Source: an uncultured Planctomycetia bacterium (GTDB lineage: Bacteria > Omnitrophota > Gorgyraeia > 1-14-0-20-64-10). From it: 64,000 bases of DNA. The translations under genes and the position numbers were made by a program. Shown here piece after piece: positions 17,376 through 58,200 of this stretch (positions are counted from its first letter, which is position 1; the number at the start of each line of letters is the position of its first letter). The notes under the pieces are model-generated. The model was not told the DNA's origin. It was given only the letters and a program-made list of their open reading frames with translations, and searched no databases. Location of the stretch: NCBI GenBank assembly GCA_964597545.1, contig CAZQXN010000001.1, positions 133,655 through 197,654 of the forward strand. The letters are read 5' to 3'.

Positions 17376-17440
17376 AAAACCTGCTGGAAAGACCAATCCC
17401 TCGTTCGTCTTTGCAATCACCTGATAAGGAGAGCCAATTC

Positions 17441-37112: not shown

Positions 37113-38005
37113 TAGGGCCATGCAATCTTCTCTGCCGGAAAGACCGGGCCCTCTGTGCATACGCGTTGAAAGCGTGCGTGCGATCCGGCCGGCTCATCTG
37201 CCATCTCCACCGTACATCCCCAGCAGCAGCCCATGCCGCATCCCATCCGTTCCTCCAGAGAGACCTGAGCGCTCACCCTTCGCTCTCTGGCCAGTGCTGC
37301 TGCGGCTCTCATCATCGGGGTGGGACCACAAATGTACAGTTGGGTTGACTGCCGATCACCATCCGCCGGCCGCAAGGCCTGCCGGAGCAGACCCACCACT
37401 GTGCCCCGGTGCCCCAACGTGCCGTCATCTGTCGCGATCTGAACCGAAACCCCAAGCTTGCTAAACTGCGCCGCCCCAATGACCCAGCCTTTGGTCTTAG
37501 CACCCAAGAAGGCAGTGACGCTTCGCCTGCCTCGGGCAAGCTGCTTGGCCAGCATGTAAAGGGGTGGAATGCCAACCCCTCCCCCGACAAGATACGCTGT
37601 TTTGGTGCCCGGCGGAACCGCAAAGGGCCGCCCCAGGGGACCCAAGAAGTCGATCTTGGACCCTGCCAATACGTGGGTAAGGGCTGTTGTGCCCATTCCC
37701 ACCACTTTGTAGACAAAATCAAGGGTCCCCTTCTTGGGATCGGCATCCAGCAGGCTGAAAGGCCTTCTCAGAAACGGGGCCGGTTCTGCTTTTGCGCTGG
37801 GGCACAGCACATGGATGAACTGTCCGGGCCGAGCCCGCTTGGCCGCCCGGGGTGACTTTAAGCGCACCCAGTAATGATTGCGAGCAATCTTGCGCTGGAG
37901 CAGGACCGGGGCCTTCTCCTGGATCATGCCGGACGGGAGTGTGCGCCCCGCCATCTCCTCAGACCCCCTCCAGATACGCCTTGGCGTATTTCTTGTAGAA
38001 GGCAA
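37112..38005 (-). CDS. pyrK: Dihydroorotate dehydrogenase electron-transfer subunit (FAD/NAD-binding, 2Fe-2S)
   Basis: Ferredoxin-reductase-like fold. C-terminal CGMGCCWGC cysteine cluster. Confidence 0.75.
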   Translation of the reverse strand: MPSTRNTPRRIWRGSEEMAGRTLPSGMIQEKAPVLLQRKIARNHYWVRLKSPRAAKRARPGQFIHVLCPSAKAEPAPFLRRPFSLLDADPKKGTLDFVYKVVGMGTTALTHVLAGSKIDFLGPLGRPFAVPPGTKTAYLVGGGVGIPPLYMLAKQLARGRRSVTAFLGAKTKGWVIGAAQFSKLGVSVQIATDDGTLGHRGTVVGLLRQALRPADGDRQSTQLYICGPTPMMRAAAALARERRVSAQVSLEERMGCGMGCCWGCTVEMADEPAGSHARFQRVCTEGPVFPAEKIAWP

Positions 38006-38984
38006 CCATCCGAGCTACCCCCTCCTCCAACCCAACACAGGCAGACCACCCGGTCGCGGCTTTGAGCTTCCCTGTATCGATGGTGAAATCCCCTGTCTCG
38101 ATCTGCTCGTAATCTTTGGGCCAGGGGGTATGGATGATTTTGCCCGAGCCCACCGCCTTGACCACCGCTTCCACCATCTCCCGGAAGGTGCGGGATTGGC
38201 CGTGACCGCAGTTTACAACCTCCCCGGTCGTCTGATCAGAGGCCAGGGCAGCCAAGATAGCGTCGGCAAGGTCGGTCGCATAGAGGTAATCCCTGCGCTG
38301 ACTGCCGTCACCAAAGATTGTAATCTCCTTGTCCTCCATGGCGCAGCGCATGAACCACCCGGGCAGGGAGTACTTGTTGTGTTTGATCTGCTGGCGCTCT
38401 CCGTAGGGGTTGGTCAGCCGCAGCACAACGGTCCGGATGCCATAATCCCGATGATAAAAGAGGTGGTATTTCTCTGTGGTCAACTTGTGGATGCCATACA
38501 GGGTCAAGGGATTGGTGGGGTGCTCCTCGGTAACGGGGTTATGCAGGATCTTGCCCAGCACCATCCGGGAGCTGGCAAAAAGCACCTTCGCATCGGCATT
38601 GTATTTTCGGCAGGCCTCCAACACCACCAAGGGCCCCCGGCAGTTAACATCCAAGTCTTCAAAGGGGATCTTGCCGCTGTCGATATAGCTGATCTGTCCG
38701 GTGAGGTTGATGATGAAGTCCTGCCCGACCACCAGATCTTTTACGAGCGCCTCATCTCGGATGTCTCCTCGCACCACGCGCAGGGTGTGTTGGAATGGGG
38801 CGACATTGGCGGGGTTGCCTCCATACCGGGGATCCAGGGAGTCCAGCACTGTGATGGCGGCATTGAGCCCGGCCAGGCGCGCAATGACATTGCTGCCGAC
38901 AAAACCTAACCCCCCGAGGATCAAGAGCTTCTTGCCCCGGAAATGGTCTTGAGGAAATTGCGGGGTATCGTGCGCCGCGGTCAT
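37959..38984 (-). CDS. NAD-dependent epimerase/dehydratase (extended SDR) inserted in the pyr operon
   Basis: [16 protein letters not shown] matches the GxxGxxG motif. A YxxxK motif follows. The ATG at 38984 overlaps the carB2 TGA stop in an ATGA arrangement. The low-complexity N-terminal extension in the track is rejected. Confidence 0.6.
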
Positions 38985-41900
38985 TTGTGGGCCGCCGCCC
39001 GGCGCCGGGGCTTGCGGGGCCGGCTGCTGCTTATTTTGATCTTCTTGTGCCACTCCTGTACGGAGCAAACCTCAAACCCCTTGGAGCGCAGCGCGTAAAT
39101 CCCTGCGGCTAAGGCATCCGCTCCGGGGATCGTAGTGACACAGGGAATTCCTCGGGAAACCGCCAGGGAGCGGATCCGGGTTTCATCGACCTTGGTAGCC
39201 TTGCCGGAGGGGGTATTGATGATCAGATCCACCTTTTCATCCCTTAGGAAATCCAGCACGTGCGGCCGTCCTTCATAGATCTTCTTTACCACTTGGGTCT
39301 CCACATGGTGCCGCTTTAAGTAATCGGCAGTCCCCTGTGTCGTCACAATCTTAAAACCCATCGTCACCAACTGCCGGGTAAATCCCGCGATGAGCGGTTT
39401 ATCCTGATCTTTGACGCTCAAAAAGACCGTCCCGGATAAAGGCACCTGCTGATAAGCGGCCATCTGCGACTTGGCAAAGGCCAATCCGAAGCTGGCATCA
39501 ATGCCCATGACCTCGCCGGTGGAACGCATCTCAGGCCCTAAGATGATATCAACACCAAAGAAGCGGGAAAAAGGAAAAACCGATTCCTTAACAGCGGTAA
39601 AGGGCGGGGTAATCTCCTTTGTCGCCCCCTGCCCGGCCAAGGTATCCCCTGCCATGATCTTGGTGGCAATCTTGACCATCGGCATGCCGATGGCCTTGGC
39701 AATAAAGGGAACCGTTCGGGAAGCCCGAGGGTTGACCTCAAGAACATACACCTCGGCCCCCTTGACCGCAAACTGGATGTTCATCAGCCCCCGGACATTG
39801 AGCTCCTGGGCCAAGCGGCGGCTGGCTGCCCGAATCTCCTCCACCACCTTGGGTGCTAAGGTGTGGGGCGGCAGGGCCATCGCCGCATCTCCTGAGTGTA
39901 CACCCGCGGCTTCGACATGTTCCAAAATTCCACCTACCAGAGAAGTTTTCCCGTCTGCAATCATGTCGACATCCACCTCGACGGCATCCTCCAGGAACTT
40001 GTCCACCAAGACCGGGCGCTCCGGAGGGGCCTGGACCGCCGATGCCATGTAGGCGCGCAAATCGGTCTCGTCGTAGACAATCTCCATGGCCCGCCCACCC
40101 AACACATAGGAGGGGCGCACCAGGACCGGGTAGGTGAGCTGCTTGGCAATTTCTAGGGCCTCGCCCGGAGTCCGGGCAGTTCCGTTGGGGGGCTGCTTGA
40201 GCTTGAGGCGATGGATCATCTCGCTGAACTTCTCCCGGTCCTCGGCCCGGTCAATCTCCTCTGGGGCGGTTCCGATGATGGGGACCCCGGCTTGGCTTAA
40301 CGCCAGGGCGAGGTTGAGGGGGGTTTGACCCCCAAGCTGAACAATGACCCCGGCCGGTCGCTCAGCCTCAACAATGTTGAGGACATCCTCCAGGGTCAAC
40401 GGTTCGAAGTAGAGGTCATCAGCGGTATCGTAATCGGTGGAAACCGTTTCAGGGTTGGAGTTGACCATGATGGTGCGATAGCCGGCCTCCCTCAAGGCAA
40501 AGACTGCCCGGACACAGCAGTAGTCAAATTCAATCCCCTGTCCGATCCGGTTGGGGCCGCCGCCTAAGATCATGATCTTCTTCTGGGCTTGAGCGTCACG
40601 CGGTGTGGGGGCTGTACGCTCAGGAGTCGCTGCGCTTTCGAGGGCAGCCGCCACCGCTGGGCGCTCATAGGTCGAGTAGTAATAGGGGGTAAAAGCTGCG
40701 AACTCCGCAGCGCAGGTATCCACCATATAGAAGAAGGGCCGGATGTTGTGCTGAAGCCTCAAGGCCCGGATCTCCATCTCAGACTCACCCCAGAGAAAAC
40801 CCAGCTGCCGATCACTGAAGCCGTATTGCTTGGCCGTCCATATCAACTCCGGGGTGGGCTTGGCCCCCTGGAGCTGGCGTTCCATCTCCACAATCTGCCG
40901 AATCTCCCGGATGAACCAGGGGTCGATTTGGGTGAGCGCAGTCAACGTTTCGTCCGAAAAACCATCCAGCATGGCTTGTCGGATTCGAAAAATTCGTTCT
41001 GCATGAGGGATGCGGAGCCTCTCTTTGAGCGCCTCAGCCCCTAGCGGTGAGGACTCCTTCCCCCCTGCCCCCAACCCGAAGTGACCGGTCTCTAAGGACC
41101 GTAACCCTTTCTGCAGCGCTTCCTTAAAGGTCCTGCCAATGGCCATGGCCTCTCCAACCGACTTCATCTGGACCGTTAGGGTGGGATCCGCCGCTGGAAA
41201 CTTCTCAAAGGCAAAACGCGGAATCTTGACAACACAGTAATCCAGGGTGGGTTCAAAAGAGGCTGGGGTCTGACGCGTGATATCGTTGGGAAGCTCATCT
41301 AGGGTGTAGCCCACTGCAAGCTTGGCCGCAATCTTGGCAATGGGAAAACCGGTTGCCTTGGAGGCCAGGGCTGAGGAGCGCGAGACCCTTGGGTTCATCT
41401 CGATCACCACGCGGCGCCCGGTTGCAGGGTCCACCGCAAACTGAATGTTGGAACCCCCGGTCTCAACCCCGATCGCCCGAATGCAGGTAATGGCTTCATT
41501 GCGCATCGCCTGATATTCCTTGTCGGTCAAGGTCTGGGCCGGGGCCACGGTGATGGAGTCGCCGGTGTGCACCCCCATGGGGTCCAAGTTCTCAATCGAG
41601 CAGATGATCACGACGTTGTCGTTCTTATCCCGCATGACCTCCAACTCAAATTCTTTCCACCCCGCTACCGATTCTTCAATGAGCACTTCAGAGACCATGC
41701 TCAGGCTCAACCCCGCCTCGGTCGTGGCCTGAAACTCTTCCCAGTTGTAGGCTATGCCTCCGCCGGTTCCGCCCAAGGTGTAGGCCGGCCGGATCACCAC
41801 CGGTAAACCGATGGCTTCAGCCACTACCTTGGCCTCCTGCAGAGTGTGGGCAACACCGCTGCGAGGTACATCCAACCCGGCCTCCTGCATGGCCCGCTTA

Positions 41901-42295
41901 AAATCGTCACGATCCTCAGCCTTCTGAATGGCCTGCTGGTCGGCGCCGATCATCTCTACGTTGTAGCGCTTGAGCGCCCCACTCTGGGCTAACTGCATGG
42001 CGACATTTAAGCCGGTTTGTCCGCCCAGGGTAGGCAGCAGGGCATCCGGGCGCTCCCGAGCGATGACCTTCTCGATCGCTTCAGGGGTAATGGGTTCAAT
42101 GTAGGTTCGATCCGCAAATTCCGGATCGGTCATGATGGTGGCGGGGTTGGAGTTGACCAGAACCACCGAATAGCCCTCTTCTCTCAAAGCCTTGCAGGCT
42201 TGCGTCCCGGAATAGTCGAACTCGCAGGCTTGGGAGATGATGATCGGACCCGAGCCGATGATCAGAATCTTTTTGAGGTCAGTCCGCTTGGGAAT
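38981..42295 (-). CDS. carB: Carbamoyl-phosphate synthase large subunit (paralog 2, pyrimidine-operon copy) with non-canonical start
   Basis: Full-length CarB (...[37 protein letters not shown]...). An in-frame TAA at 42320..42322 lies 9 codons upstream of the conserved PKRTD. No ATG/GTG/TTG occurs between them. The only candidate start is ATT at 42295 with GGAGA 7 nt upstream. The track starts at an internal TTG at 42187. Confidence 0.8.
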
Positions 42296-43013
42296 GGTCT
42301 GGTCTCCGCATGGCCGGGCTTACCGGCAGATCAAACTCCAACACCGGCATGGTATGAAATTTTCCCTGGCCTGCCCGGTAGGTGGCAAAGAGGGGTGCAA
42401 AGGTCTGCCAGGCCGACTCGCTCCGGGTCAGGCGGGCCCGAGCAGTAATGATCCAATTGGTCCCTGTCTGCACAATGGCCAGTGCGATCTCCTCTGCGAA
42501 TAGCCGCTCCGGAGGCGAGCCTTCGGGCAGTGTGAGGCGCAGCTCCTTGCTGTACAGAAACCAGGGGCCGCTGGCATCGGGCGCCTGGTCAGGCTTCTCC
42601 TCTGTCTGAGTCCATCCTGCGGTGTGCAGCTTGACGCCGACCGGCAGTCGAAGCAGCAGGTGCAGTTGGGCGTCCGGCTCCTCTGACGGCTCCCACTGTT
42701 CTGGGACGCTTTCTACCACAAGCTTGACCAAAGCGACCTCTCCGGGTTCCAGCTTCCGCTCCGGCGCCTCAAAGCGCACTCGGATGGGCGATGGGGCTGT
42801 CTCAACCGTCGGAGCCGGAGAGGGTGTCTCAGCCGACATCTCTTGGGCCGGTGCCGGCTGCGTAGCCGGTCTGGCCCGCCGGGCACCAAACTCAAGGGGT
42901 TCAAGAACCGCCTCTTCCTGTGGCTCGGGCAACGGGGTCGAGGCATGCCGCAACACCACCACCGCAGCGATCACTCCCACAGTCAGCAAAATGCCGATTG
43001 CGATCTTCTTCAT
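42279..43013 (-). CDS. Hypothetical membrane-anchored Pro-rich protein between carA and carB2
   Basis: N-terminal TM ([17 protein letters not shown]), Pro/Glu-rich linker, then ~150-aa domain. No recognisable family. Confidence 0.35.
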
Positions 43014-44137
43014 TGCCTCTTGCCCTCCTGCATGAGCTTTACAAAACGGTCAAACAGATACTGGGAATCGTGCGGACCCGGGGAAGCCTCAGGGTGATAT
43101 TGAACCGAAAAAAGGGGAAGTTTTTTGTGCCGGATCCCCTCGCAGGTTTTGTCATTGAGGTTGATGTGCGTCATCTCCACATCCCTTCCGGGAATGGAGT
43201 CAGGGCGCACACAAAAACCGTGGTTCTGTGCGGTAATCTCCACTTTGCGGGTGCCCAGATCCATGACTGGGTGGTTGGCCCCGTGATGCCCGAACTTCAG
43301 CTTAAAGGTCTTACCCCCCAGGGCCAATCCCAGTACCTGGTGGCCCAGACAAATACCAAAGATCGGAATTTTACCGATGCACTCCCGCACGGTGGAGATT
43401 AAGTACGGCACCCCTTCGGGGTCACCCGGACCATTGGAGAGGAACAGCCCGTCTGGTTTGAGTGCCAAGATCTCTTGCGTTGAGGCTGTTGCCGGAGCCA
43501 CCGTCACTCGACAGCCCTTTTGGGTCATCATGCGGGGGATGTGGTCTTTCATGCCGCAGTCGATCGCCACCACGCGGGGTCTGACCTCTTTTTTGAGGTG
43601 AAAGGGGTCTGACCCCTTTGGGGTTTTCTCTGACCACTCGTAAACTTGCTGGCAGGTGACCTCCTTAACCAAATCCCGGCCCACCAGTCCAGGCAAAGCT
43701 TGGGCCTTCTGCACCAACCGCTTGGCATCGCCATCCTCTGTGGAGAGCACCCCCTTGAGAGCCCCTTTCTCTCTCAAGAGAAGGGTGAGCCTCCGGGTGT
43801 CGATCCCCTGAATGGCAACTGTCCCCTGATGGCTCAGCCACTCCTCCAAGGCCCCCTCTTGCTGCCAGTTGGAGGCAATCGGGCTTAAGGCGCGCACAGC
43901 AAATCCCTCTGCTTGTGGCTTTGCCGACTCTGTGTCGCTAGAATTGATCCCATAATTGCCGATAAGAGGATAGGTCATCACCACGATCTGCCCGCGGTAA
44001 GAAGGGTCGGTTAAGATTTCCTGGTAGCCGGTCATGGCGGTGTTAAAGATCACCTCCCCGGACACCTCGCCCGAGGCGCCAAACCCCTCGCCGCAGAAGA
44101 CGGTTCCATCCTCCAGGGCCAGCATTGTTTTCTTCAT
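43010..44137 (-). CDS. carA: Carbamoyl-phosphate synthase small subunit (glutamine amidotransferase)
   Basis: MKKTMLALEDGTVFCGEGFGASGEVSGEVIFNTAMTGYQEILTDPSY. GATase triad region. The start is taken at the ATG at 44137 by N-terminal homology. The GTG at 44161 is rejected. Confidence 0.85.
   Translation of the reverse strand: MKKTMLALEDGTVFCGEGFGASGEVSGEVIFNTAMTGYQEILTDPSYRGQIVVMTYPLIGNYGINSSDTESAKPQAEGFAVRALSPIASNWQQEGALEEWLSHQGTVAIQGIDTRRLTLLLREKGALKGVLSTEDGDAKRLVQKAQALPGLVGRDLVKEVTCQQVYEWSEKTPKGSDPFHLKKEVRPRVVAIDCGMKDHIPRMMTQKGCRVTVAPATASTQEILALKPDGLFLSNGPGDPEGVPYLISTVRECIGKIPIFGICLGHQVLGLALGGKTFKLKFGHHGANHPVMDLGTRKVEITAQNHGFCVRPDSIPGRDVEMTHINLNDKTCEGIRHKKLPLFSVQYHPEASPGPHDSQYLFDRFVKLMQEGKRQ
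43576..43619. repeat. Two copies (one diverged) of the AAAGGGGTCTGACCCCTTT palindromic element inside the carA coding region
   Basis: GGGGTCTGACCTC at 43576..43588 and the exact 19-mer at 43601..43619. Both are in frame, encoding ...PKGSDPFHLKKEVRPR... in the CarA inter-domain linker. Confidence 0.65.
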
Positions 44138-44138
44138 A

Positions 44139-44278
44139 GGGGACGGTCCATTTTGGGACACACCAGGAGCTGAGATGTCCTCTGTCGAGTAAAACCCGCT
44201 ATTGATCCAAGCATCATTCTGTCTATCCCGCCATGTTTACCAGAAACGGCCTGGTGTGTCCCAAAATGGACCGTCCCC
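44139..44278. repeat. Perfect 29-bp inverted repeat (GGGGACGGTCCATTTTGGGACACACCAGG ... reverse complement) with 82-bp spacer, abutting the carA start codon
   Basis: Arms at 44139..44167 and 44250..44278 are exact reverse complements. On the mRNA strand the distal arm ends 1 nt before the carA AUG. Confidence 0.7.
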
Positions 44279-44287
44279 TTTAGAACT

Positions 44288-45535
44288 TTAGAAGAGGGTC
44301 AGCTGTTTTTCCTTTTCCGGCGCCCCCGATTCCTTTCCCTTGAACTTGAAGATGTTAACCTCGCCATACTCCCCGTCGTAGCCGGGCAAAATCTCCACCT
44401 CCCCCTTGCGCACCCGAAGGATCCCTTCAGCCAGCTTCTGGGGAAGCTGTTTGCGCAGCTCCTCGGCCGGCAAATCGATTAGGATCTCAAACTCGGTGCC
44501 GACCCGCCCAACCAAATCCAGATATTCCTGCTGCACCCTTTTGGACTGTACCCCTACCTCGCGCGCCTCAGAGATGATCTGATCCAGCGGCACCATGCGC
44601 TTAAAGGGGATTGCCCCTTCCGGGGTCTGTCCTGCGGGGCGGTCGGCCAAAGCCTGCACCCGGTTCATGACTCCGACGGTGATCTTCTTACCGCAGGCCG
44701 GGCATCGAGTGCCCTGCCGGGCCGTCTCCTCGGGTGAAACCCGAACCTTGCAGGGGCGGTGGCCGTCAAAGTGATACTTCCCCTCTTCAGGGAAGAACTC
44801 CACCGTATACAGGAAGCGCTTGGCATCCTTGGTCTTCAAGATCTTTGCGACCTCGCGGTACTCCATCTTGCAGTCAAAGACGTTGGCCTCCCGACCGATG
44901 CGGCTGACGGAATGAGAGTCTGAATTGGAGATGAGCGTATAGCGGTCAAGGCCGCTCAAGCGCCAATTCATCTCAGGGTCTGAGGAAAGCCCGGTCTCTA
45001 AGCAGTGGATCTCGCGCGCCTGGTCTCCGAAACACTCTTCTACCGTGTCAAAGCCTGAGTAAGAGCCGAAGATGGAGAACCATGGCGTCCAGGCATGAGC
45101 AGGCACAATGAGGATTTCGCTGGAGATGTCCAAAACGAGCTTCACCATGTCCCGAGCAGAGAGGCGCAGGAGCGGCCGTCCATCTGAGTTTAAGTCACCG
45201 TAGCGGGCCAGCTGCTTGTTAGCCGCCTCGGCAATCTCTAGGCTCGGGAAGATGAGGACCGTATGGATACGCTTGTTCTTTCCGCCGACCAAGAATTGGT
45301 TGTTCACCTCGGCGGTCGGTACAAAATGCACCCCGCAGTACTCATAGAAACCACCCGGGGTGACTTTGAGTTTGGTTTTAAGCTCCAGCATCCAGAGGGG
45401 ATGCGTACAGTCTCCGGTTCCAAGCAAATGGACCCCTTTGTACCGGGCCCACTGGGCCAACAGGTCCAGATCCAGCCGGGTACTGGTGGCGCGCGAGTAC
45501 CTGGAGTGCAGGTGAAAATCGGCAACGAGTCTCAT
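44288..45535 (-). CDS. PHP-domain protein, endonuclease Q-like (TIGR00375-type)
   Basis: N-terminal DFHLHSRYSRATS...LLGTGDCTHP is the PHP metal-binding motif. C-terminal zinc-finger CPACGKKI. Confidence 0.5.
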   Translation of the reverse strand: MRLVADFHLHSRYSRATSTRLDLDLLAQWARYKGVHLLGTGDCTHPLWMLELKTKLKVTPGGFYEYCGVHFVPTAEVNNQFLVGGKNKRIHTVLIFPSLEIAEAANKQLARYGDLNSDGRPLLRLSARDMVKLVLDISSEILIVPAHAWTPWFSIFGSYSGFDTVEECFGDQAREIHCLETGLSSDPEMNWRLSGLDRYTLISNSDSHSVSRIGREANVFDCKMEYREVAKILKTKDAKRFLYTVEFFPEEGKYHFDGHRPCKVRVSPEETARQGTRCPACGKKITVGVMNRVQALADRPAGQTPEGAIPFKRMVPLDQIISEAREVGVQSKRVQQEYLDLVGRVGTEFEILIDLPAEELRKQLPQKLAEGILRVRKGEVEILPGYDGEYGEVNIFKFKGKESGAPEKEKQLTLF

Positions 45536-45602
45536 CTCAAGCCTCCGTGGGAACTTCTAGGGGCAGAATGGCCTGTCTGCAGACCGCTTTAAAAATCTTA
45601 GC

Positions 45603-45914
45603 TTACGGCCAGGTCAGGAAATCGAGGAGCTCGGTGGTGTGTGACGCCGGGTCCTCGGATGCCGGCGACCGGGACGGCCGGGCAAGGTATCGAGCGATGG
45701 AGCGCACCCGCTTCTTGGCCAGCCGGCCGTGCCGAGTTCCAGGAAAGGTTTCGGCCAGCAGGCTGTAGAAGTGATAGGCGATTTCCATCTGCTGCTTTGA
45801 CAGAGCGACGTCTGCCTGGTGCTGCAACTTCCGGGCCTCGTGGATCCCCTCCGTTGAGGCGCCGCTTCCCATCAGCAAGACGCTTAACAGCAATCCCAGC
45901 ATCAGCAAGCGCAT
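45603..45914 (-). CDS. Hypothetical small secreted protein
   Basis: Signal-peptide-like N-terminus MRLLMLGLLLSVLLMGSGAS. No family assignment. Confidence 0.3.
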   Translation of the reverse strand: MRLLMLGLLLSVLLMGSGASTEGIHEARKLQHQADVALSKQQMEIAYHFYSLLAETFPGTRHGRLAKKRVRSIARYLARPSRSPASEDPASHTTELLDFLTWP

Positions 45915-45929
45915 GGCTTCTCCTTTATC

Positions 45930-46619
45930 TCACTCTCTGAACGTAAGCTCTTCCACTATGACCCCGTCCGGCACAGTAAAGACAAAGGACTCAGGAGGGA
46001 TCGGGGCATTCACTTCGATATCGTAAAATCGATGGATCAAAATCTCTTTGTCCTCTGAGGTCAGCAGTGCGGTGCGACGCGTTAAACCATCCCCCTCTGC
46101 CACATCAACCCGAACGGTCTTGATCTTAACTGGGGCGGTTTCGTTCACCGCATCGAGCGGATCGGCCTCAAAACGCAGGAGGGTCTGACCTTCAGCCTCA
46201 ATCCGTTCGATAAACCGAAGGGTATCTAATTGAAGATCCGCAAAGGGCTGGTGCGGCCCAGGGGGGAGCGGTGGATTGGTGATTTTGTAAATGGTGTTGT
46301 CTTCAATCCCATGCTGCCACTCTACCTTGCCGTCGTCCACCAACAGCTGGCTGTTCTCGACCTCGCCTGCATATCGGATCTCCAGGCGCCTGAGGTTAGG
46401 CCGTTGGTAAAAGAGCTTCCCCTCCAGCTCGATGGGCTCCTCCCCCTCCTCCTTGACCTCCAGAGAGAATCGAGCTTTGTAGCTCGTGAGGGCATCGACC
46501 TTGGCTTGAAGTGCCTCGGCCTCCTCTGGAAGGGCTGGGCTTTGAGCCCAGGCAGCAAGGGCAACGCCCATAACCAGCAACACCACACACAATGTCCTAT
46601 AAGCCAGATCGCGCTTCAT
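45930..46619 (-). CDS. LolA-like (outer-membrane lipoprotein carrier fold) secreted protein
   Basis: Start at [10 protein letters not shown] with a signal peptide, directly abutting the pyrC stop. beta-rich LolA/LppX-like pattern. The long N-terminal extension in the track is rejected. Confidence 0.4.
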   Translation of the reverse strand: MKRDLAYRTLCVVLLVMGVALAAWAQSPALPEEAEALQAKVDALTSYKARFSLEVKEEGEEPIELEGKLFYQRPNLRRLEIRYAGEVENSQLLVDDGKVEWQHGIEDNTIYKITNPPLPPGPHQPFADLQLDTLRFIERIEAEGQTLLRFEADPLDAVNETAPVKIKTVRVDVAEGDGLTRRTALLTSEDKEILIHRFYDIEVNAPIPPESFVFTVPDGVIVEELTFRE

Positions 46620-47923
46620 GTCACCACCCCTTCCATGAGCCGGCCGCCACTGACCCTCTGCCTGCCGGCCACCAACACCTCTGTCACTTGCCCTTTCATG
46701 CGCCAGCCCAAGAAGGGAGAGTTGGTGCCCCTTGAAGCAAAGTTGCCGGCCTCCACTGTCCAATCTGCCTTGGGGTCAAAAACCGCTATATCTGCAACAG
46801 CGCCCGCGTTGAGTGTCCCCCGGTCGATGCCGAGCAGCTCGGCCGGCCGCGCGGCAAGCGCCTCAACCATCCTGGAAAGGGTAAGCTGCTTGCGATGCAC
46901 CAACTCCGTCAAGAGCGCCCCGAGGGCGGTCTCCAGCCCCATCGCTCCGAACGGGGCATGGGACAACCCCAACTCTTTTTCTGCCTGCGCATGCGGCGCA
47001 TGGTCGGTGGCCACCACATCCAAGGTGCCGTCGGCCAATCCCCTGCGCAGGGCTTCTTGATCCTTCTGGGACCTCAGCGGCGGCTTCATCTTAAAGCGGG
47101 CATCATAGGTGCTCAGCGCCTCTTCGGTCAGGGTTAGGTGGTGCGGAGTCACCTCGGCTGTGACCTGAACTCCTCTGGCCTTGGCGGCGCGAATCATTTC
47201 GACACCGGCTGCGGTGCTCACATGCGCAATGCGAAGCTTTCCGCCGACGGCCTCTGCCAGAAGGATGTCTCGCGCAATCATGATGGTCTCAGATTCAGCG
47301 GGGATGCCAACCAACCCTAAGCGCGTGGACGTCACCCCCTCATGCACCACCCCCTGACCGGAGAGGGTATGGTCTTCGCAGTGATCGATGATGGCAAGGC
47401 CTGTCATCCGGCTGTACTCCAGTGCCCGCCGCATCAGCCCCGCATTTTGAACCGGCATCCCGTCATCAGAAAAACCGACCGCCCCAGCCGCCTGGAGCTC
47501 TGACATCTGAGTTAGGGTCTCTCCCTGCAGTCCCATGGTCACCGCCGCAATCGGCAGCACCTGGATAAGTCCCACCTTGGTTGATTCATTTCTGACGTAT
47601 TCCACCACCGTTGCCGAGTCCACCACCGGATCGGTGTTGGCCATGGTGCAGACCGTGGTGAAACCCCCTTGAAGGGCAGCCAGGGATCCGGTTTGAATGG
47701 TCTCTTTGTGCTCTTGGCCTGGAGAGCGAAAGTGCACGTGCAAATCAATGAAGCCGGGGCTGACCACCTTGCCCTTGGCATCTAAGATCTCGGCGCCGTT
47801 GGCCTTTAGATTTTTGCCGACCTTGGAGACCTTGCCCTTCTCAATGAGCAGGTCGGTTGTTTCATCGACCCCTTGCGCCGGATCGATGAGGCGGCCCCCT
47901 TTGATCAACAACGACTTGCTCAT
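46616..47923 (-). CDS. pyrC: Dihydroorotase
   Basis: [10 protein letters not shown]...[15 protein letters not shown]...metal-binding His/Asp pattern of amidohydrolases. Confidence 0.85.
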
Positions 47924-48894
47924 GGGCGCACCTGCTGGGGTGCGGGGGCATCCGCTCCGGACTCTTCCTCGGCGGTCACTCCAGCCACCAGGTACAGCAC
48001 CGCCATCCGTACCGCAATGCCGTTGGTGACCTGCTCCAAGATTACCGATTGAGGTCCGTCGGCCACATCCGGGGCGATCTCGATGCCCCGATTGACCGGT
48101 CCGGGGTGCATGACAATCAGATCCGGTTTGGCCCGAGCCAGCTTCTTCTGGGTCAATCCATAAAGCCGGGTGTACTCCCTAAAGGAGGGGATGTGGCGCT
48201 CCTTCTGCCGCTCCAGCTGCAGCCGAAGGGCCATGACCACATCGGCTTGGGCTAGGGGCTTGTCCAGATCGTAGCTGACCTTGACCCCCAAGGCTTCTAT
48301 GGTGGGGGGGACCAGGGTGGGCGGGCCGCAGACGGTGACGTCGGCGCCCAGCTTGGTCAGACCCCACAGATCTGAGCGGGCCACGCGTGAATGCAGGATA
48401 TCCCCGACGATCACCACTTTGAGCCCCTCAATCCGTCCCTTCTTTTCTTGAATGGTGAACAGATCCAACAGCCCCTGGGTGGGGTGTTCGTGGGCGCCGT
48501 CGCCGGCATTGATCACGTTGGATCGGATTGCGCGCGCCACTGAGGCCGGGACACCGCTGGCGCTGTGGCGCACCACCACCACATCCACCCGCATCGCCTC
48601 GAGATTCCGAGCGGTGTCTACGACGCTTTCTCCCTTGACCAAACTCGAGGAGGAGCCTTGCACTTGCAGGATATCGGCGGAGAGCCGCTTGGCTGCCAGC
48701 TCGAAGGAGGCCCGTGTGCGGGTAGAGGGCTCCAAGAAGCAAAGGGCTACGGTCCTGCCCCGAAGGGCCGGAACCTTCTTGATGGCCCTGCCTGAGACCT
48801 CCTTGAACGCTTTGGCCTGCTGAAGCAGGAGTGTCAGCTCCTCTTTGCTTAACTCCTCTAATCCCAGCAGGTCCTTCCGAGTCCAGCGGGTCAT
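47920..48894 (-). CDS. pyrB: Aspartate carbamoyltransferase catalytic subunit
   Basis: [22 protein letters not shown] matches the STRTR carbamoyl-phosphate-binding motif. HPxQ region. Confidence 0.85.
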
Positions 48895-49445
48895 GTCACC
48901 ACCTCCTCAATCACAACCTCGTCCAAGCTGTCTACCTCAGTCAGGCGAACCTGAACAAGCTCCTGCTTGGCGGTTGGCAAGTTCTTTCCGACGTAATCCG
49001 CCCGTATCGGCAGCTCTCGATGTCCCCGATCCACCAGCACAGCCAACTCAATCACCTCGGGCCTTCCTAAGTCGGTCAGGGCATCCATTGCCGCGCGAAT
49101 CGTCCGGCCCGTAAAGAGGACATCATCTACAATCACCACCCGGCGCCCGGTCACATCGTAGGGAATCTCAGTCCCATGCACCACAGGATTGGACCCGCTG
49201 TGGTTGAGGTCATCCCGATAGAGGGTGATGTCCAGAGTTCCCAGGGCAACGGTGCGTTCGCTGATTTGACGAAGGAGTTTGTCCAAACGCTGTGCCAGCA
49301 CTTCGCCTCGAGATCGGATGCCGATCAAACAGATGCCCTCTGAATCGTGATCCTTCTCAAGGATTTCGTGGGCAATGCGGGTGAGTACCCGCTGGATCCC
49401 ATCGGCATCCAGGGCTTGGGTTTTAGTGCGGGTCTTGGCACTCAT
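48891..49445 (-). CDS. pyrR: Bifunctional pyrimidine operon regulator / uracil phosphoribosyltransferase
   Basis: PRTase-type protein ([19 protein letters not shown]). The start is taken at the ATG at 49445. The TTG at 49457 lies inside the terminator U-tract and is rejected. Confidence 0.8.
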
Positions 49446-49454
49446 GAAAGGGCA

Positions 49455-49501
49455 CAAAAAAATGGCTCACCCCCGCCTGACTCTAGGCGCAGATGAACCA
49501 T
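49455..49501 (-). terminator. Attenuator terminator of the pyrR leader
   Basis: mRNA-sense AUGGUUCAUC...GGUGAGCCAU forms a 10-bp stem including 2 G-U pairs, followed by UUUUUUU immediately before the pyrR start. Confidence 0.5.
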
Positions 49502-49539
49502 GGTTCGCTCAACAGAAACCACTTTGACCTCCCTTTTCT

Positions 49540-49553
49540 GGCCTCTCAGGACC
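49540..49553 (-). promoter_or_regulatory. PyrR RNA-binding loop (anti-antiterminator region) in the pyrR leader
   Basis: mRNA-sense ...UUUAAACUGGUCCUGAGAGGCCAGAAAAGGGAGG... matches the conserved GUCCAGAGAGGC(U) PyrR-binding motif with one substitution. Confidence 0.6.
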
Positions 49554-49609
49554 AGTTTAAAAGGTTATTTGCCTGTATCCCCGCGACAAGCGAGGATCCT
49601 CATGTAAGA

Positions 49610-50446
49610 TTAAACCACATCCTCCCCGTCGGTGTCAAGGTCGAGCAGGGTCTCGGTGGGATTTTTGAGGTGGTGGCGGCAGATTCCCCGCTCACTTTTC
49701 TGCACAAACTCCACCAAATGCTCCACTTCCGGAGGAAGATCCTGAAGGGCTCGGATGGAGTTAAGAGCCTGGGTGGTGTTCAAGCCCGCTCGATACAGGA
49801 GGCGATAAGCTTCCCGGATCTTTTGCAAGACCTGGGGTGCGACCTTGGCCCGCCTCAAACCCACCGTGTTGATCGACCAAACTTCGGAATCCCCCTTCAC
49901 CAGCAGGTAGGGTGGAATGTCCTTGTTGACCCGGGCCAGCCCCGCCACCATGGCAAGGGTTCCCACCCGGACAAATTGGTGAACCGCGACATGTCCGGAG
50001 AGGATCGCCCGATCCTCGACGGTGACATGGCCGGCCAAGAGCGCTCCGTTGGCAAGAATCACCCGGTTACCAACGTGGCAGTCGTGGGCCACGTGGGAAA
50101 AACCCATCAAGAAGCAGTCTGAGCCCAGGCTGGTCCAAGCCCCAGGCTGGGAGGCCTTGTGGATTGAGGTGTACTCCCTGAGCACCGTTCTATCCCCAAT
50201 CCGAACGCCGCCGGCCTGCGGCTCCCGAAGAGCCTGATGGAGATGGCCGACGACCGCCCCCACATGAATCTGACACTCCTCCCCAATCTCCAAGGGGGCC
50301 GCGAGATATGCGTGCGACCAAATCTTGGTGCCGGCCCCCACGCGGACCGGTCCCTCAATCACGGCATAGGGGCCAATTTCAACGCCAGGAGCAATCTCTG
50401 CCGCAGGATCAATAACCGCTGTGGGGTGGATATCGACGGTGCTCAA
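49610..50446 (-). CDS. lpxA: UDP-N-acetylglucosamine O-acyltransferase
   Basis: Left-handed beta-helix hexapeptide repeats (IHPTAVIDPAAEIAPGVEIGPYAVIEG...). A TTG start at 50446 overlaps the rsmI TGA. No upstream in-frame ATG exists before a stop. Confidence 0.75.
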   Translation of the reverse strand: MSTVDIHPTAVIDPAAEIAPGVEIGPYAVIEGPVRVGAGTKIWSHAYLAAPLEIGEECQIHVGAVVGHLHQALREPQAGGVRIGDRTVLREYTSIHKASQPGAWTSLGSDCFLMGFSHVAHDCHVGNRVILANGALLAGHVTVEDRAILSGHVAVHQFVRVGTLAMVAGLARVNKDIPPYLLVKGDSEVWSINTVGLRRAKVAPQVLQKIREAYRLLYRAGLNTTQALNSIRALQDLPPEVEHLVEFVQKSERGICRHHLKNPTETLLDLDTDGEDVV

Positions 50447-51177
50447 AGGGGTCTGACCCCTTTCTGGGTTTTAGGGGTCTGACCCCTTTGGTTCCTTTGG
50501 TATGGTACCGGAATGAAGATAATCGTGCACTCCCCTTTTGGAGCGCGAGTAGTATACCGTGCCAGAACCTCGCTTGTCGAGCCGCGCGTCAGCTCCTCGT
50601 GCATCTTGGTCAGCTCCCGAGCAACCGCCACTGGGATTTCGCCTAGCACCTTCTGGATCGTCTGGAGGGTTTTGACCACCCGATAAGGGGATTCAAAGCA
50701 GACAACAGGGTCTTCTTCCTCGGCCAGGCCGCGAAGCCACCGCTCCATGGCAGCCGACTTCTTTGGGGGGAAACCTTCAAATTGAAACCGCTCCCCCCGA
50801 AAACCAGAGAGGGCCAGCGCCGTGGTGACGGCTGAGGGGCCGGGGATCACCTCTACGCGGACTCCAGCAGCATGTGTCTGGGTAACCAGATCCGCCCCTG
50901 GGTCAGAAACCGTCGGCATCCCGGCATCGGTCACCAAGGCAATCGATTCACCGGCCTTAAGCCTCTCAAGCAATTGGGCCCCTTTGGCGCGCTCGTTGTG
51001 CTCATGGAGCGAGGTAAGTGCTGTTGTAACCCCATGCCGCATAAAGAGTTGCTTGGTCCGGCGCGTATCCTCGGCCGCCACCAGAGAAACCTCCTTAAGC
51101 ACCTTGAGAGCCCTTAAGGTAACGTCCTCAAGGTTGCCGATCGGGGTACCCACCAGATACAGCGTGCCTGCGCTCAT
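50443..51177 (-). CDS. rsmI: 16S rRNA (cytidine1402-2'-O)-methyltransferase
   Basis: LYLVGTPIGNLEDVTLRALKVLKEVSLVAAEDTRRT matches the tetrapyrrole-methylase-fold RsmI N-terminus. The last 15 codons are encoded by two copies of the 19-bp palindromic element. Confidence 0.7.
   Translation of the reverse strand: MSAGTLYLVGTPIGNLEDVTLRALKVLKEVSLVAAEDTRRTKQLFMRHGVTTALTSLHEHNERAKGAQLLERLKAGESIALVTDAGMPTVSDPGADLVTQTHAAGVRVEVIPGPSAVTTALALSGFRGERFQFEGFPPKKSAAMERWLRGLAEEEDPVVCFESPYRVVKTLQTIQKVLGEIPVAVARELTKMHEELTRGSTSEVLARYTTRAPKGECTIIFIPVPYQRNQRGQTPKTQKGVRPL
50445..50489. repeat. Two tandem copies of the palindromic element AAAGGGGTCTGACCCCTTT
   Basis: 50445..50463 is identical to 43601..43619. The second copy AGGGGTCTGACCCCTTT is at 50473..50489. 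Confidence 0.7.
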
Positions 51178-52243: not shown

Positions 52244-55200
52244 ATGGGGAAATCTTTCACCAGAATCTTTACCCTTTTGCTGGCGCTAAGCCTTGCCCTG
52301 CCAAGTCCTGCTTGGGCCCTGCGCAGTCAAGAACCCATAGAGACTACTGCAGCCACTGGGCTCGAAGAGGCCCTCTCCGGCCGGAAGGAAGGGGAAGCGC
52401 ACGTTGATGGCCACCTCATAGCAAGGCGCTTCGCCGAGCTGCTCAGGGAGGGGCGGACCAACCCAGCAATTCACTCTGGCGCGCCCTCCTCAAAACCGCT
52501 TCAGCGAGACGACATTACGCGAACCGACGCCAGAGAGGTGGTTTGGGAGTTGAGCGAAAAGGCGCTTAAGGGTGCGCTCAACGAACTGTGGGAGCGAGTG
52601 CTGCGGCACTCCGCTTATTGGAGACAGTTCCGCAAAGAGATCGATGTGGGCGCGCTCGGTCCAAAATATATAGAGCAGGGAATCGTCGATCACCTGTTCT
52701 CCATCTTAAGACACCCATTGGCCAATGCCGTTGATGCCTTGGTGCGAGCGTCCTATCCGGTTTTCGAGGATGCCGAGATTGCCGTCCTATGGTCTGTGCG
52801 GGGGCAGGAAATCCGGATTCAGATTTTGGATACAGGCTCTGGAATCGCCCCGGATGCCCTTGGTGTGCTGGGTCAAGAACTCATCGAAAACGACAAGGCG
52901 GACGAACTGGGGTCTTTTGGGCGGCAGGGGCGCGGGGCGTTCATTGCTGCGCGCTTGGCTGCAGCAGAAAATTGGCAGCTCAGTTTCGCCAACCGCGATG
53001 GCACAGGGGGCGCTGTCGTATCGCTGATTATCCCCCTCACCCCCACCCTCTCCGGCCAGGAGGAAACTTGGGAATTAAAAATCCAAGCCGGTTATACCGA
53101 TGCTCAAGTGACCGTTTTAGGCGTGGGCTTTATCGGCAGCCGAATCATGCAGCGTCTTTTGGGCTCCTACGGAGCGCTGGTCCGGACGGTCAAGGGAACC
53201 ACCACGAAAGCTTCTGAAAATCTCGCCACTCGGTTCTCCGATTTCCCCGCCTACCCGAAGCTGGCTCCAATCCAAGGAGATCACCGCAATGCCGAAAGCG
53301 TTCGCCGGTTCATTGGGGACTCCAAAGTCATCCTAGATACTGCCGGTCTTGCTTGGCAACACAAATCCGGGGGCAAGCCCGCCACCTTGGAAGAGGAGCT
53401 GCTCCAGAATGCAGCCAGCGCGGCGCTGATCGGACAACTGCTGGGTTCCTATCAGCGCCTCGTCTGGACCTCCAGCAACGCGGCCGATTACATGTTGGCT
53501 CGATTGCGCACTCATGAACAAGCTGTGCTCCTGAAAGAAATCGACGAGCGCGCCCGGCGCTACGTTCAATTCTCCAAGGGCCTTCCCTCTCAAGAAGCGT
53601 GGGGTGATTTCGTCCGACAGGATTTAGCTGAGTTTCAACCGCAAACTTTTGAAAAAGGCCCTAATCAAGCGGCAGCGGTCTTTGCAAAGGCATTCAGCTA
53701 TCCTTACTCCAAGCGGCTGGGGGAGCGAATATTAGAAATTGTATCGGAGGATCCAGAGAAAGACATCTGGGTGCTCAGGATCTCAGATGTATACGGCCCA
53801 GGCCAAGGTTTAGGGAAGGAGTTCTGGCATCCGGAGCGCGAGCGGCGGAAAGCAGCCAGGCGTCCACAATGGTTCATGGCGATTTTTGAAGCGATTCGCA
53901 ACGGGCAATTTGAGCCCTGGAAAACGGGGCAGGATTTCTTTCAAAGCAAGAACGAGCAGACCATCTACAACGACTTTGTGGCCCCTGTTTATATTGATGA
54001 TGTCGTGGAGATGATCCTGCGCGCCTCTGTGTTGGAAAAAGATTCGGACACTCCAGGTTCCGCAGTCCTCCAACTAAGCGCCCCGTGGATGACCAATCAG
54101 GCGATGGCCGAAACTATTGCCCAACAGGTCGGAATCGATCTGAACATTGCTGTGGGGGATCCGATCCTTCGACAGCAGCCGCTGGCAGCAAATTCGGGCT
54201 TGGCCCTTTTGGGCATGCAGGGAGAGCTTACCTCTTTTGAGGATGGGGTGGCCCGCCATTTGGACTGGTGGCGCCAGCCTCAGGTCCCCGCCGGCCAGGA
54301 GGAGAAACGAGCGCTGGCTCGGCATCTGAGGGATTGGGTAATCCCTCGGCTGCGGGCTCAGCTCCAGGCGGAGGAACAGATCGGTGTCGGCCGTCTGCGC
54401 AGGACGATCGGCGAGATTCAAAGCGACCAACCCTTTATCCAGGGAGGGGTGGCCTATGTGCCTGCTCGCCAAGGCCGATTGATTGTCCTTGGGGATCTCC
54501 ACGGAGATCTGGTCATGTTTGAGAAGATCCTTGACCAAGTGGGGTACGACCCCGAGATCAATCCAACGCTTCCGCCCGAACTTCAAGCGCACCTGGTGAT
54601 GGCTGGGGACCTTGCGGAGGGGGGTAGGCAGAACATCAAGCTGGCCAATCGGCTGGGGGAAATCAAGCTGAAGGATCCGAATCACGTCATCTTCGCAGGG
54701 GGCAACCACGACCAGGAATTGGTTCTGTGGGATTCACCGATCATCTCGAAGTATCCTCATTTCACCTTCTTGTCCAAAGAGCTGGCTGACCTGTTGGGGC
54801 CGGAGGAGGGAATGTCGATCTACGGGGATTGGAATGGTCTTGGGCGCGCACTTCCGGTCCTGATCGCTTTCCCCAACGGGATCGTCGTTGTGCATGGAGG
54901 GGGGCCCTCTCTGGCAAATCCTCCGCCACCTGGGCTTCCAGAGCAATTCCGCACCACCTTCAGCCCCGAAGCGGGCCTGTTGGGCATTGAGAATCCCATC
55001 ATCCAGGACCAGATGTCGTTTAACTTCCTGTGGGGATCCCACCTGGCTCGTTCCATGCCTGAGGTTGATGAGGTGATCGCGCTCAGCTCTAGAACCAGCG
55101 AGCGGGGAATGCACCCCGGCTTCTGGATCTCGCGGAACAGCCATTTTGGGTTCCTGGATTCGATTGGGGGGAAGGTTTTGGTTCGGGGACACGACTCCTG

Positions 55201-58200
55201 GGCCCCTCACGATCAAGTGTTCTACGATGGGACCGTCTTAACGCTTCAGTCCACCGATTATCGCTCACCAGACCACGCCTTCCAGAGGGATCGTCAACTG
55301 ATCGGCCGCTACGCTGAGTTCGATTTAAGCCAGACCTATGACCGGATTGATCCTGAGGGGGTAGTCAAGTATCTGTCCTGGGCCTCCGGCCTGGAGGAGG
55401 ATATTGCGGCCGAGGCGGCCGCTCTTCAAGAAGAGGGTCGGCCATTCAAGTTGGACCTGCATTGGCACGGCGTCGATCCGGATGGAAGATATCAAAAGGA
55501 CGGCAATGTCTCTCTTGTCAGCATTGGGTTCGACAGAGGGCGAGCGGATGTGCGGGGTGCCGCGCAACATGTGCAGCAAGCGCTCAGGCAGGCCACGGAT
55601 CATCCAGATGTGCGCATCGTAGCCGGCGGCAGCGAGAACTATGTTGCTGTCCTGCTGCCGCGGAAGCCTTGGGGGATGGAACGTGTTGCGCGCGAAGAGC
55701 TTCCGGGTGACCTCTCAGAGTGGCTCACTGTCATTGTGGGCGATTCCCTGGGCCTGGACTTTCTCTCTCTGGAACAGCAAGAGCGGTTCCCCACAGCATC
55801 CCTCCAGATATTGGTTCAGGGAAAGGAGGCCGTCTTGCCGCCTCACGCTGAAGAGGTCGTTCTCGCCAAGAAGGGCGGCGACGGTGTGGATGCCCTGCTG
55901 ACAGATCTGCTTCGGGTAATCGAGCGGGGCGGGCAGTACCAGGAGGTGGAATCCTTTGGAGAGCAACTGCCAGGGGACTTCCAGGATAAAGCCCTTAATC
56001 CTAAAAGATTGCATCTTATCTTTGATGTCGACAGCACGTTGATGGCCTCACTGGACACGTTTGATGCGCAGCAGCACGGAAAGCAGGGGCAGGAATTTAA
56101 GGGGGAGCGGCTGGAGAATATCGCCCGTCTGGCGGAGCGCGGCGTCTTCTTCAGGTTTGGAAGCGGCAAGGCCTTAGAGGAGGTCTCCGGTGACCGAGCC
56201 GTTCCTGACTGGGATCGTCTGCTGATCCCAGTTGTAAAGGCTTTCATGGATCGCAGGATCCCTGTGCAGCAAGTGGGATACGACGGCGTTTCCGGACAGC
56301 AAAAGGTGCGGGTGCGACCCGGAACAGAAGAACTGCGCTTTAGCCGAAGAGAGCTTCCGATCAGCCCGGATCGTCAGGTTTTTACGAATCAAGAGGTGAT
56401 ACGGCTCTTCCGCTTAGGCCTCCAGGCGGTCCAAGCCAATGCCAAGCCGACTCAACCGGGAGCCGACGCCGCCGGTCAGGAGGAGATAGCACAGGTTGCA
56501 GTAGAGGCTAGAATTTTAGCAATGGATCTAGGCGGAACTAACCTTCGGATCGGTTTGGTCAATAAGCGGACAGGAGAACTGTTTCCTGGAACGTTGCGCG
56601 CGCATCCCCTCGAATTCCTTCCGGGCACATCGCATGCCTCTGGTCGGAATGCCGAGGTGATCCTCCATCAGATTCTAACAGCTGCTCAAGCCTTATTGTC
56701 AGATATAGGGTTGGATTCTTTCGCTGAGATTGGAGGTGTCGCAGTGAGTATTGCCGGCAGCCTGAGGGAAGGGGAGGGGGTTGTTCGTTTTCAAGCAAAC
56801 CTCCCCTTTTCAGGACAGAATCTTGCTGCGCTCCTATCGCACCGGTTTAATGTTCCTCCGCAAGCCATTGTTCTTTCAAATGACGTAAGGGCTGGACTTC
56901 GAGCTGAGATGCACTATGGCGCGGGTCAAGGGCGCCGGGCCGGCTCGGTCGGATATTTCTCGGTGGGAACCTCCGCCAATGGGGCTTTTTTATCCGATAA
57001 GGGAGAAATAGTTAAGTTAGACTCAATTGATTTGATCAGATCGTGGATCAGGGAAGTCTCCATGCGTGCCGGAGGAATGCACCTACCACATCGGGCAGTA
57101 GAACAGGGAATGCCCTCAGCCACTGTTGGGACAACACAACAGGTTTGGGAGCAGGCGCAGGCGAGCCATGAAACTGCCAAAAAACTTATTCGGAAAGCAG
57201 CTGAGTCGATAGGAGAGGCTCTCGTCAAGATTACGGAGGCCGTAACAAAAGAGCAGGAGTTTCTTTGGATCCTCGGTGGCGGTGTGGTTGAAGGAATGGG
57301 TGAGCCGTTTGTTGAACAAATTCGGGCTTCAGCCGATCAGGAGCTCCATGAATCCCGTCGTGGACAAAGAATTACCATTTGTCTCTCTCCGTTGGATGGC
57401 CGAGAACGAGGGCTTCGTGGTGCAGCTTTGAGCGTTGCCGCCGGGCTGGAGGAGCAGGTTTCCCAGCGGGATGCGGCCGATATTAATCTGCTTTTCCAGC
57501 ATCTGGCCAACCCGGTAGATCAGCGGCAGATGCCCGAAACGTTCGATGCGGTCGTGGTCCTTGGTAATCCGAATCCTCAGCAAAATGGGGCGGCGGCGGC
57601 CGAAGCGATCCATCAGTTTAAACCAAGCTTCGTTGTGATAACAGGCACAGCCGAAGAAACACCTCAGTTTAAGAACGTGCTGTCCCAGCACGGCATTAAG
57701 GATCTCATCGAAGATGCAGCTGCGAGGCATACGGGGGACAATGCTCGAAACAGCGCCCGACTGCTGAAACCCAAAGGGCTTCCCGATTCCCCGAACATTC
57801 TTCTGGTCTCTGACCCACTGGCGGCAACCATCGCTCTGCGATTTTTCGAGCTGCAGTTTGCAGATGAATGGGGAGGGCCGGCAAATTTCTACAGCTACAC
57901 AGCCTCGTTGCCTAGCGTAACACCGGGAACGAACCGTAGCGAATTGGGAATGCAAGTGCAAGCGGGGATCAATATTTTTAGGAGCCTTAACGACTATGCT
58001 GGCACGTTCATTTCGGATCACGAAGCAGATCGGGATCCTCAAGTGGCCGCAGCGGTGCAGCGGCTTCGTGACCAAAACTATACCGCCGGCCAGGAGGAAA
58101 GCGCACTAGCGCAGGCTTTGTCCGACCCTGAGGTGCAAGCGGGCCTGGAGGACAAGGGCTGGGCCCAAACGAAAGCGCTGGGGCCAACTGTCTTTGTTGG

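Follow-up and report, generated by a model that had tools for sequence, protein, structure and literature searches.

REP-type palindromic doublets in the pyrimidine gene cluster of an Omnitrophota bacterium and their probable mobilisation by a RAYT transposase

A palindrome of 19 bp, AAAGGGGTCTGACCCCTTT, recurs in doublets within the pyrimidine gene cluster of an uncultured bacterium of the phylum Omnitrophota. The DNA analysed—the window—is a stretch of 64,000 nucleotides (assembly GCA_964597545.1, contig CAZQXN010000001.1, positions 133,655 to 197,654 of the forward strand), and coordinates refer to it unless another locus is named. We consider it probable that the 19-mer is the stem–loop unit of a family of repetitive extragenic palindromes (REPs), doublets of which were inserted in this Omnitrophota lineage and mobilised by a REP-associated tyrosine transposase (RAYT). 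The sites occupied in the window are empty in a close relative, and the palindrome is the REP of a RAYT subclade because the identical palindrome adjoins RAYT-type genes in other phyla.

Copies of the palindrome and the genes that carry them

Exact copies of the 19-mer lie at 43601–43619 and 50445–50463, each with a degenerate partner 26–28 nt off. The partner at 50471–50489 agrees in 17 of 19 bases and has an exact core, and the one at 43573–43591 holds a core (43576–43588) in which 12 of the 13 bases of GGGGTCTGACCTC are kept. Dinucleotide shuffles of the window (n = 100) give an expectation of 0.02 matches to the 19-mer at three mismatches or fewer, and none of the 100 shuffles reached four. 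The third site is a variant array at 37017–37112 with TGTACA-extended arms and a 29-nt palindrome at 37062–37090, in which GGG-core variants at 37025–37035 and 37071–37081 stand among three CCCTTTTGTACA arms. True copies are thus found at three sites in 64 kb (37.0, 43.6, and 50.45 kb), and a palindrome search returned this REP family as the only repeated palindromes of the window.

In carA (43010–44137, minus strand), both units are read in frame. The protein reads ...TPKGSDPFHLKKEVRPRVV... between the Pfam domains CPSase_sm_chain (14–139) and GATase (199–375), the exact copy encoding KGSDPF and its partner EVRPR of this linker. The database protein P0001 (375 aa) is identical to the CarA of the window, is encoded on an NCBI contig of 208,633 bp, and begins at Met9 of the open reading frame (ORF). 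The second doublet forms the end of an rsmI-like gene for a TP_methylase (50443–51177, minus strand; 244 aa), whose Pfam domain ends at residue 204 and whose C terminus past this domain reads ...QRGQTPKTQKGVRPL. Here, the partner unit encodes RGQTP and the exact copy the tail KGVRPL, and the last two T of the latter make up, with the next G, the TTG start codon of lpxA (49610–50446, minus strand), which overlaps the rsmI TGA stop in the tetranucleotide TTGA. The AAAGGGG of this copy might in addition act as a Shine–Dalgarno-like sequence for lpxA, judging by its letters. The variant array follows the 3′ end of a pyrK-like gene (37112–38005, minus strand) for the Fe–S subunit of DHODB.

An earlier sequence-only reading of the window had described most of this arrangement: an identical, nonrandom 19-mer at 43601–43619 and 50445–50463, additional copies near 50473–50489 and 43576–43588, a GGG-variant tandem at 37017–37112, KGSDPF and EVRPR in the interdomain linker of CarA, and two copies encoding the RsmI terminus with a TGA/TTG overlap at the lpxA start. 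The exact positions and the shuffles bear out the first of these claims, the additional copies reappear as the 17/19 and 12/13 matches, the tandem is the array with its two GGG cores and three arms, and the translations and Pfam boundaries agree with the rest. Core-like matches at 40320 and 41265 in carB were rejected as copies of the element: they encode a native conserved GGQTP motif that relatives have too. Further weak core-like matches are found at 1357, 46181, 48353, 51300, and 54541.

Hairpin structure

A single 19-mer unit is predicted to fold into an 8-bp stem with a 3-nt loop at −9.6 kcal/mol. For the doublets, the predicted energies are −26 kcal/mol (z −3.6) in carA and −33.1 kcal/mol (z −5.9) in rsmI. 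Since each unit is self-complementary, pairing is also possible between the members of a doublet, and a doublet that folds as one long hairpin has the architecture of a REPIN, that is, of a REP doublet forming a hairpin. Every copy in the window and in the two related loci L240 and L242 introduced below is paired with another.

A near-perfect palindrome in this setting might also be an operator for a dimeric DNA-binding regulator of the pyrimidine cluster, or the target of an RNA regulator such as PyrR—a possibility that the sequence-only reading had raised in the form of a regulator-binding site. All true copies of the window and all five doublets of L240 do lie within the pyr/car cluster, which includes a pyrR-like gene at 48891–49457. 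However, the sites are inside ORFs and at 3′ ends instead of at promoters, and a relative with the same operon and an 89% identical CarA (L241) has no copies. The 19-mer is moreover found in unrelated contexts of many phyla, beside transposase genes, and Rfam at the gathering threshold reports only three tRNAs in the window, with no match of the element to PyrR or any other RNA family. Regulation through this palindrome is therefore highly improbable, and the regulator-binding site is not upheld.

Filled and empty sites in related genomes

The named homologs of the window's CarA are almost all labelled Candidatus Omnitrophica or Omnitrophota. Three loci were compared with the window: L241, the syntenic relative mentioned above; L240, likewise syntenic (GCA_947085785.1, CarA 75% identical); and L242, a 3.7-kb carA contig from GCA_964607585.1. 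In L241, 14.9 kb contain no core, and each of the three window sites, which are lineage-specific insertions, is empty. The sequence-only reading had proposed insertions of this kind, and the closest relatives do lack both the amino acids and the DNA.

At the rsmI/lpxA junction, both syntenic relatives encode an RsmI of 226 aa whose stop overlaps the next start as ATGA. The window differs by a block (50443–50507, minus strand) of which 54 nt are missing from both relatives; it makes RsmI 244 aa long and turns ATGA into TTGA. Hence, the insertion rebuilt the lpxA start: it added 18 residues to RsmI and switched the start codon from ATG to TTG via the T-run of the palindrome. The CarA linker of the window exceeds the modal length of 21 residues by ~10. 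Behind pyrK, variant repeats of ~95 nt stand between the stop codon and GGAGGTGAGCC, the conserved ribosome-binding region for the next gene; L241 lacks this array, and there the GGAGGTGAGCC region directly overlaps the pyrK stop.

L240 carries five doublets within ~5.6 kb (21 kb of this locus was scanned), each of them in frame or at a junction of genes (carA, carB, pyrK, and pyrK/pyrD). Its carA doublet reads KGSDPKSHSGVRP. Two doublets lie in carB, of which one cleanly adds 10 residues as compared with the window and the other leaves the net length unchanged, and one lies in pyrK. At the pyrK/pyrD junction (16025–16064 of L240), a T-centred copy provides the pyrK stop (GTC TGA) and abuts the GTG start of pyrD, which after this REP-made junction begins VGSDPKRPLGVRP. 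In L242, a perfect doublet occupies the carA linker. One and the same DNA is accordingly read in several frames, as GSDP, GVRP, and GQTP or GLTP; its A-centred form is free of stops in every frame, and its T-centred form has TGA in one.

A doublet is present at the same CarA linker position in 4 of 120 homologs. The nearest relative of each of these four proteins has none and is 89–95% identical outside the linker; therefore, this single site has seen at least four gains or at least four precise losses. The alignments of filled against empty sites, which comprise few pairs, yield neither a common target motif nor a target duplication.

These comparisons also decide on the view that KGSDPF..VRP and GQTP..GVRPL are functional peptide motifs conserved at the protein level, with the palindrome as a mere by-product. 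The same peptide pair does occur in the four CarA proteins, yet their nearest relatives manage without these residues, and the same DNA is translated in three frames (GSDP, GVRP, GQTP/GLTP) in unrelated proteins and across gene junctions. The spacers vary and the 13-mers stay exact. The refutation that the sequence-only reading had proposed—orthologs with the peptides and no palindrome—was looked for, and relatives with KGSDP..GVRP carry the nucleotide palindromes as well. Peptide motifs, to which next to no probability was assigned, are refuted by the empty orthologous sites.

Seven further Omnitrophota CarA homologs (P0010, P0019, P0017, P0082, P0021, P0005, and P0011) have unrelated insertions of 9–36 residues at the same linker position, for example, PRPGGLGMTSGAGGLP, ..SPFDKLRANG.., ..PRFREDD.., and PAQTGMPAQTGTPAQ. 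Some of them resemble, at the level of the protein, what other GC-rich palindromic repeats would give when translated.

Distribution across phyla and association with RAYT genes

When one genome per species was scanned, the exact 19-mer turned up in more than 119 stretches (L001–L119 among them), against ~4 expected by chance on our own estimate. The matches listed come from Acidobacteriota, Planctomycetota, Actinomycetota, Bacillota (many of them Faecalicatena, isolates included), Alpha-, Beta-, and Gammaproteobacteria, Myxococcota, Desulfobacterota, and others; among them, doublets are frequent, and the 19-mer often sits at the apex of a longer, perfectly palindromic sequence with lineage-specific outer arms. 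In L001–L119, the flanks prolong the palindrome by at least 3 bp in 27% of the copies (~2% expected) and by at least 5 bp in 18%. Copies are depleted from long frames, with 53% inside frames of at least 150 codons compared with 90% of random positions—this frequency outside long frames is a further point against peptide motifs. A literature search for the 11-mer, the 13-mer, and the encoded peptides brought up nothing relevant.

The densest locus, L103 from Desulfobotulus, has eight copies in 6.9 kb and encodes a Y1_Tnp protein (PF01797) of 231 aa; one copy lies 29 nt upstream of this gene and another overlaps its 3′ end. Homologs are encoded in five more of the 119 loci, with the element 13–103 nt from the gene ends or inside their 3′ ends. 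A Y1/HUH gene is flanked by the element or lies just beside it in seven loci (L103, L024, L019, L029, L028, L243, and L244), spanning Desulfobacterota, Myxococcota, Alpha- and Gammaproteobacteria, and Bacillota. L243 and L244, from Geobacter and Methylococcales, were reached via the protein database; one has a core 36 nt upstream, and the other is flanked on both sides by cores with one mismatch. Five of the proteins were aligned: the HUH motif is invariant, as is the catalytic Tyr, the other four are 29–46% identical to the first, and the best NCBIfam match is NF047646, the REP-associated tyrosine transposase (E 1e-15 to 1e-21).

The association was also approached from the opposite side, with 80 metagenome loci chosen solely because they encode this transposase clade. 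In ten of them, a core with one mismatch or none lies no more than 200 nt from the gene, mostly on either side of it, where we estimate ~0.1 by chance; others carry related GGGG...CCCC hairpins. Among the 80 loci, no close homologs of the window proteins were found, and none was identified as an Omnitrophota RAYT. Two of them (L272 and L315) encode a carB homolog, 52–58% identical to that of the window, a few kb from the transposase. This is curious in view of the REPs of the window and L240, which themselves cluster near carAB, and may be chance.

A different transposase would have to be assumed if the palindrome were an element like the Rickettsia palindromic elements (RPEs) or like MITEs (miniature inverted-repeat transposable elements), moved by a DDE enzyme such as the IS481-family gene at 11070–11975. 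In-frame insertions recall the RPEs, and this DDE transposase does lie within the window. But no copy adjoins the IS481 gene, the 19-bp units have no terminal inverted repeats apart from the hairpin itself, and filled and empty sites differ without a target-site duplication. We regard such an origin as very unlikely.

Mechanism and opposing evidence

If the doublets are REPs mobilised by a RAYT, they would have been inserted at permissive spots of a compact cluster—the CarA linker, the rsmI 3′ end with the lpxA overlap, and the pyrK 3′ junction. Only frame-keeping insertions would have survived, so that the palindrome is read as GSDP, GVRP, or GQTP. REPs commonly occur as doublets, and a doublet can form a pair of small hairpins or a single long one in the manner of a REPIN. 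A RAYT encoded elsewhere in the genome, or recently lost, would act on the hairpin in single-stranded DNA and copy or excise the doublet. The insertions in the proteins might be neutral passengers. As the lpxA TTG would be buried in the 3′ arm of the hairpin, initiation might require that it be coupled to the translation of rsmI. For this genome, we infer mobilisation, since no RAYT was found in the window or in the Omnitrophota loci.

Several observations weigh against this assignment. A tblastn search detected no RAYT homolog in the 64-kb window, L240, or L241, and of the best 120 database homologs from a RAYT profile search none is labelled Omnitrophota. The NF047646 matches score 57–74 bits, under the curated cutoff of 80. 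The spacers of 7–35 nt in the window, L240, and L242 show that the doublet is no rigid unit, and window doublets share the central base in both members, whereas those of L240 and L242 are inverted, with T and A centres. The element has neither the GTAG nor the CGTC tag by which the two large superfamilies of REPs are marked (Di Nocera et al. 2013, PMC3733652, where untagged REP-like families are acknowledged as well): the Omnitrophota copies inspected are bordered by A/T runs or by coding sequence, with neither tetranucleotide next to them. Finally, in a control with phage contigs, the AAAGGGG-N5-CCCCTTT hairpins had several favoured centres, TCWGA being one of them (in 5 of 120 loci). This centre is favoured and not unique; therefore, we do not claim every cross-phylum copy as a REP, and some single copies in other phyla may be convergent terminator-like or ordinary hairpins.

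The last point also bears on the idea that the hairpins are terminators or mRNA-stabilising structures that evolved locally or by gene conversion, without any transposase. TCWGA is among the common centres of generic phage-contig hairpins, and an A-run, a GC stem, and a T-run together look like an intrinsic terminator for both directions. Only on the plus strand, which is antisense to all genes of the region, are the units flagged as terminator-like; no T-rich tail follows them on the sense (minus) strand, where termination would be polar on lpxA and on the GATase domain of CarA. Insertions of 27–54 nt with identical sequence at several sites, missing from a close relative, are no products of point mutation, and the physical association with RAYT genes is strong. 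Locally evolved hairpins are for these reasons unlikely.

Mobilisation by a RAYT, which we prefer, may be extended by a more daring proposal that we hold to be possible but doubtful: the REP core GGGGTCWGACCCC with its A/T-run flanks, and with it the RAYT clade, would be common to many phyla almost unchanged, and in Omnitrophota the enzyme would insert doublets or seamlessly excise them at the same codon-level sites, with at least four changes of state at the CarA linker and with the pyrK 3′ junction used in two lineages. REPINs are usually pictured as lineage-specific, vertically inherited, and extragenic. If the proposal is true, REP–RAYT systems are a recurrent and reversible source of variation in linkers and termini and of rewired stops and starts in essential genes.

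Further features of the window

All genes between 34.8 and 51.9 kb lie on the minus strand and make up the pyrimidine cluster. By coordinate, these are pyrF, pyrD, a small membrane ORF, pyrK, an epimerase gene, carB, an ORF of 244 aa, carA, an ORF of 415 aa, two small ORFs (103 and 277 aa) with no Pfam match, pyrC, pyrB, pyrR, lpxA, the rsmI-like methylase gene, and a diphthamide-synthase-like gene. The conserved N terminus of CarB is encoded in frame upstream of the first ATG, GTG, or TTG of the carB ORF (38981–42187). At 42293–42295 (minus strand), ATT stands in the window and in L241 at the position of the L240 Met; to judge from the sequence, carB probably starts at this rare AUU codon, in an overlap with the end of the 244-aa ORF. 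Outside the cluster, a second carB, a full-length paralog of 1089 aa, is found at 17411–20680 (plus strand).

An ORF of 2117 aa occupies 52244–58597 (plus strand), and its partial counterpart in L240 matches PfkB, PrmA, and a methyltransferase. The IS481-family DDE transposase (minus strand; rve, LZ_Tnp_IS481, and HTH domains) stands beside two tRNA genes (12815–13027) in REP-free surroundings. A singleton perfect hairpin at 14029–14060, with the 14-bp arms CGGTACCGGGTACA-AGCC-TGTACCCGGTACCG, is unrelated to the REP family.

Comparison with known systems

REP and REPIN–RAYT systems share with the present element a short, GC-rich stem–loop unit, dispersed copies, and doublets able to form one larger hairpin; in other phyla, the copies of seven loci immediately flank a single Y1/HUH gene, and target duplications are lacking. 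Apart from the missing tags and the absence of a RAYT from the Omnitrophota loci searched, the differences are that the unit here is an almost perfect palindrome with a loop of 1–3 nt and A/T-run flanks, and that its core is near-identical although the RAYT genes are 29–46% identical to the first one aligned. Nor are the copies mostly extragenic: two of the three window sites and all five L240 doublets lie inside ORFs or form their ends.

The closest parallel is given by the intragenic REPs of Opitutus terrae and Rickettsia conorii, which are mostly dimers encoding 20–30 residues (Di Nocera et al. 2013, PMC3733652). There as here, units or dimers are in frame in housekeeping genes, contribute ~10–30 residues, and are often at termini or between modules. 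The sequence family and the phylum are different, and in the Omnitrophota loci stop/start overlaps are in addition rebuilt (rsmI/lpxA, and pyrK/pyrD of L240) and one codon-level site of CarA has been hit in four lineages. The statement of the sequence-only reading that small palindromic repeats are tolerated in frame within ORFs is borne out by the carA and rsmI insertions; its remark that such repeats are otherwise rare was overstated, as intragenic REP dimers are already documented.

Classic RPEs of the RPE-1 type are ~100–150 bp long, have a consensus of their own, and are not known to have a transposase. The RPE parallel of the sequence-only reading holds as an analogy, since both are palindromic repeats tolerated in frame within ORFs. 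It does not hold as an identity: the present units have 19 bp (45–54 bp per doublet), form hairpin doublets, and flank RAYT genes in other phyla—a distinction by size and description.

With IS200/IS605 elements, which transpose as single strands by "peel and paste," the link is the associated enzyme of the same Y1/HUH superfamily. By analogy, a mechanism that recognises hairpins, excises seamlessly, and inserts at specific sites would account for the untouched look of the empty sites. Unlike IS200/IS605 elements, the Omnitrophota copies carry no transposase between their hairpins. MITEs differ by the target-site duplication, which the filled and empty alignments lack. The element is neither an operator nor, as target duplications are missing, a MITE, and its unit size and RAYT link set it apart from strict RPEs.

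REP-type elements are thereby extended to the Omnitrophota, an uncultured phylum with compact, overlapping genes, and such genomes leave room for selfish hairpins only in protein linkers, termini, and gene junctions. In essential genes, the loci described offer clean natural cases of sites with and without an insertion, and rsmI/lpxA is an example of a REP insertion that turned an ATG start codon into TTG and would bury it in a hairpin. A RAYT clade with a cross-phylum REP bears on how RAYTs recognise hairpins and on the horizontal movement of REP–RAYT systems. For annotation, peptides such as KGSDPF, KGVRPL, and RGQTP are a sign of REP read-through when they occur in proteins from metagenomes.

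Taken as a whole, this is a known phenomenon—in-frame REP dimers—in a new phylum and with a new REP family. What goes beyond the textbook picture is the near-identity of the REP core across phyla, the recurrence at one codon position of CarA, and the rebuilt stop/start overlaps.

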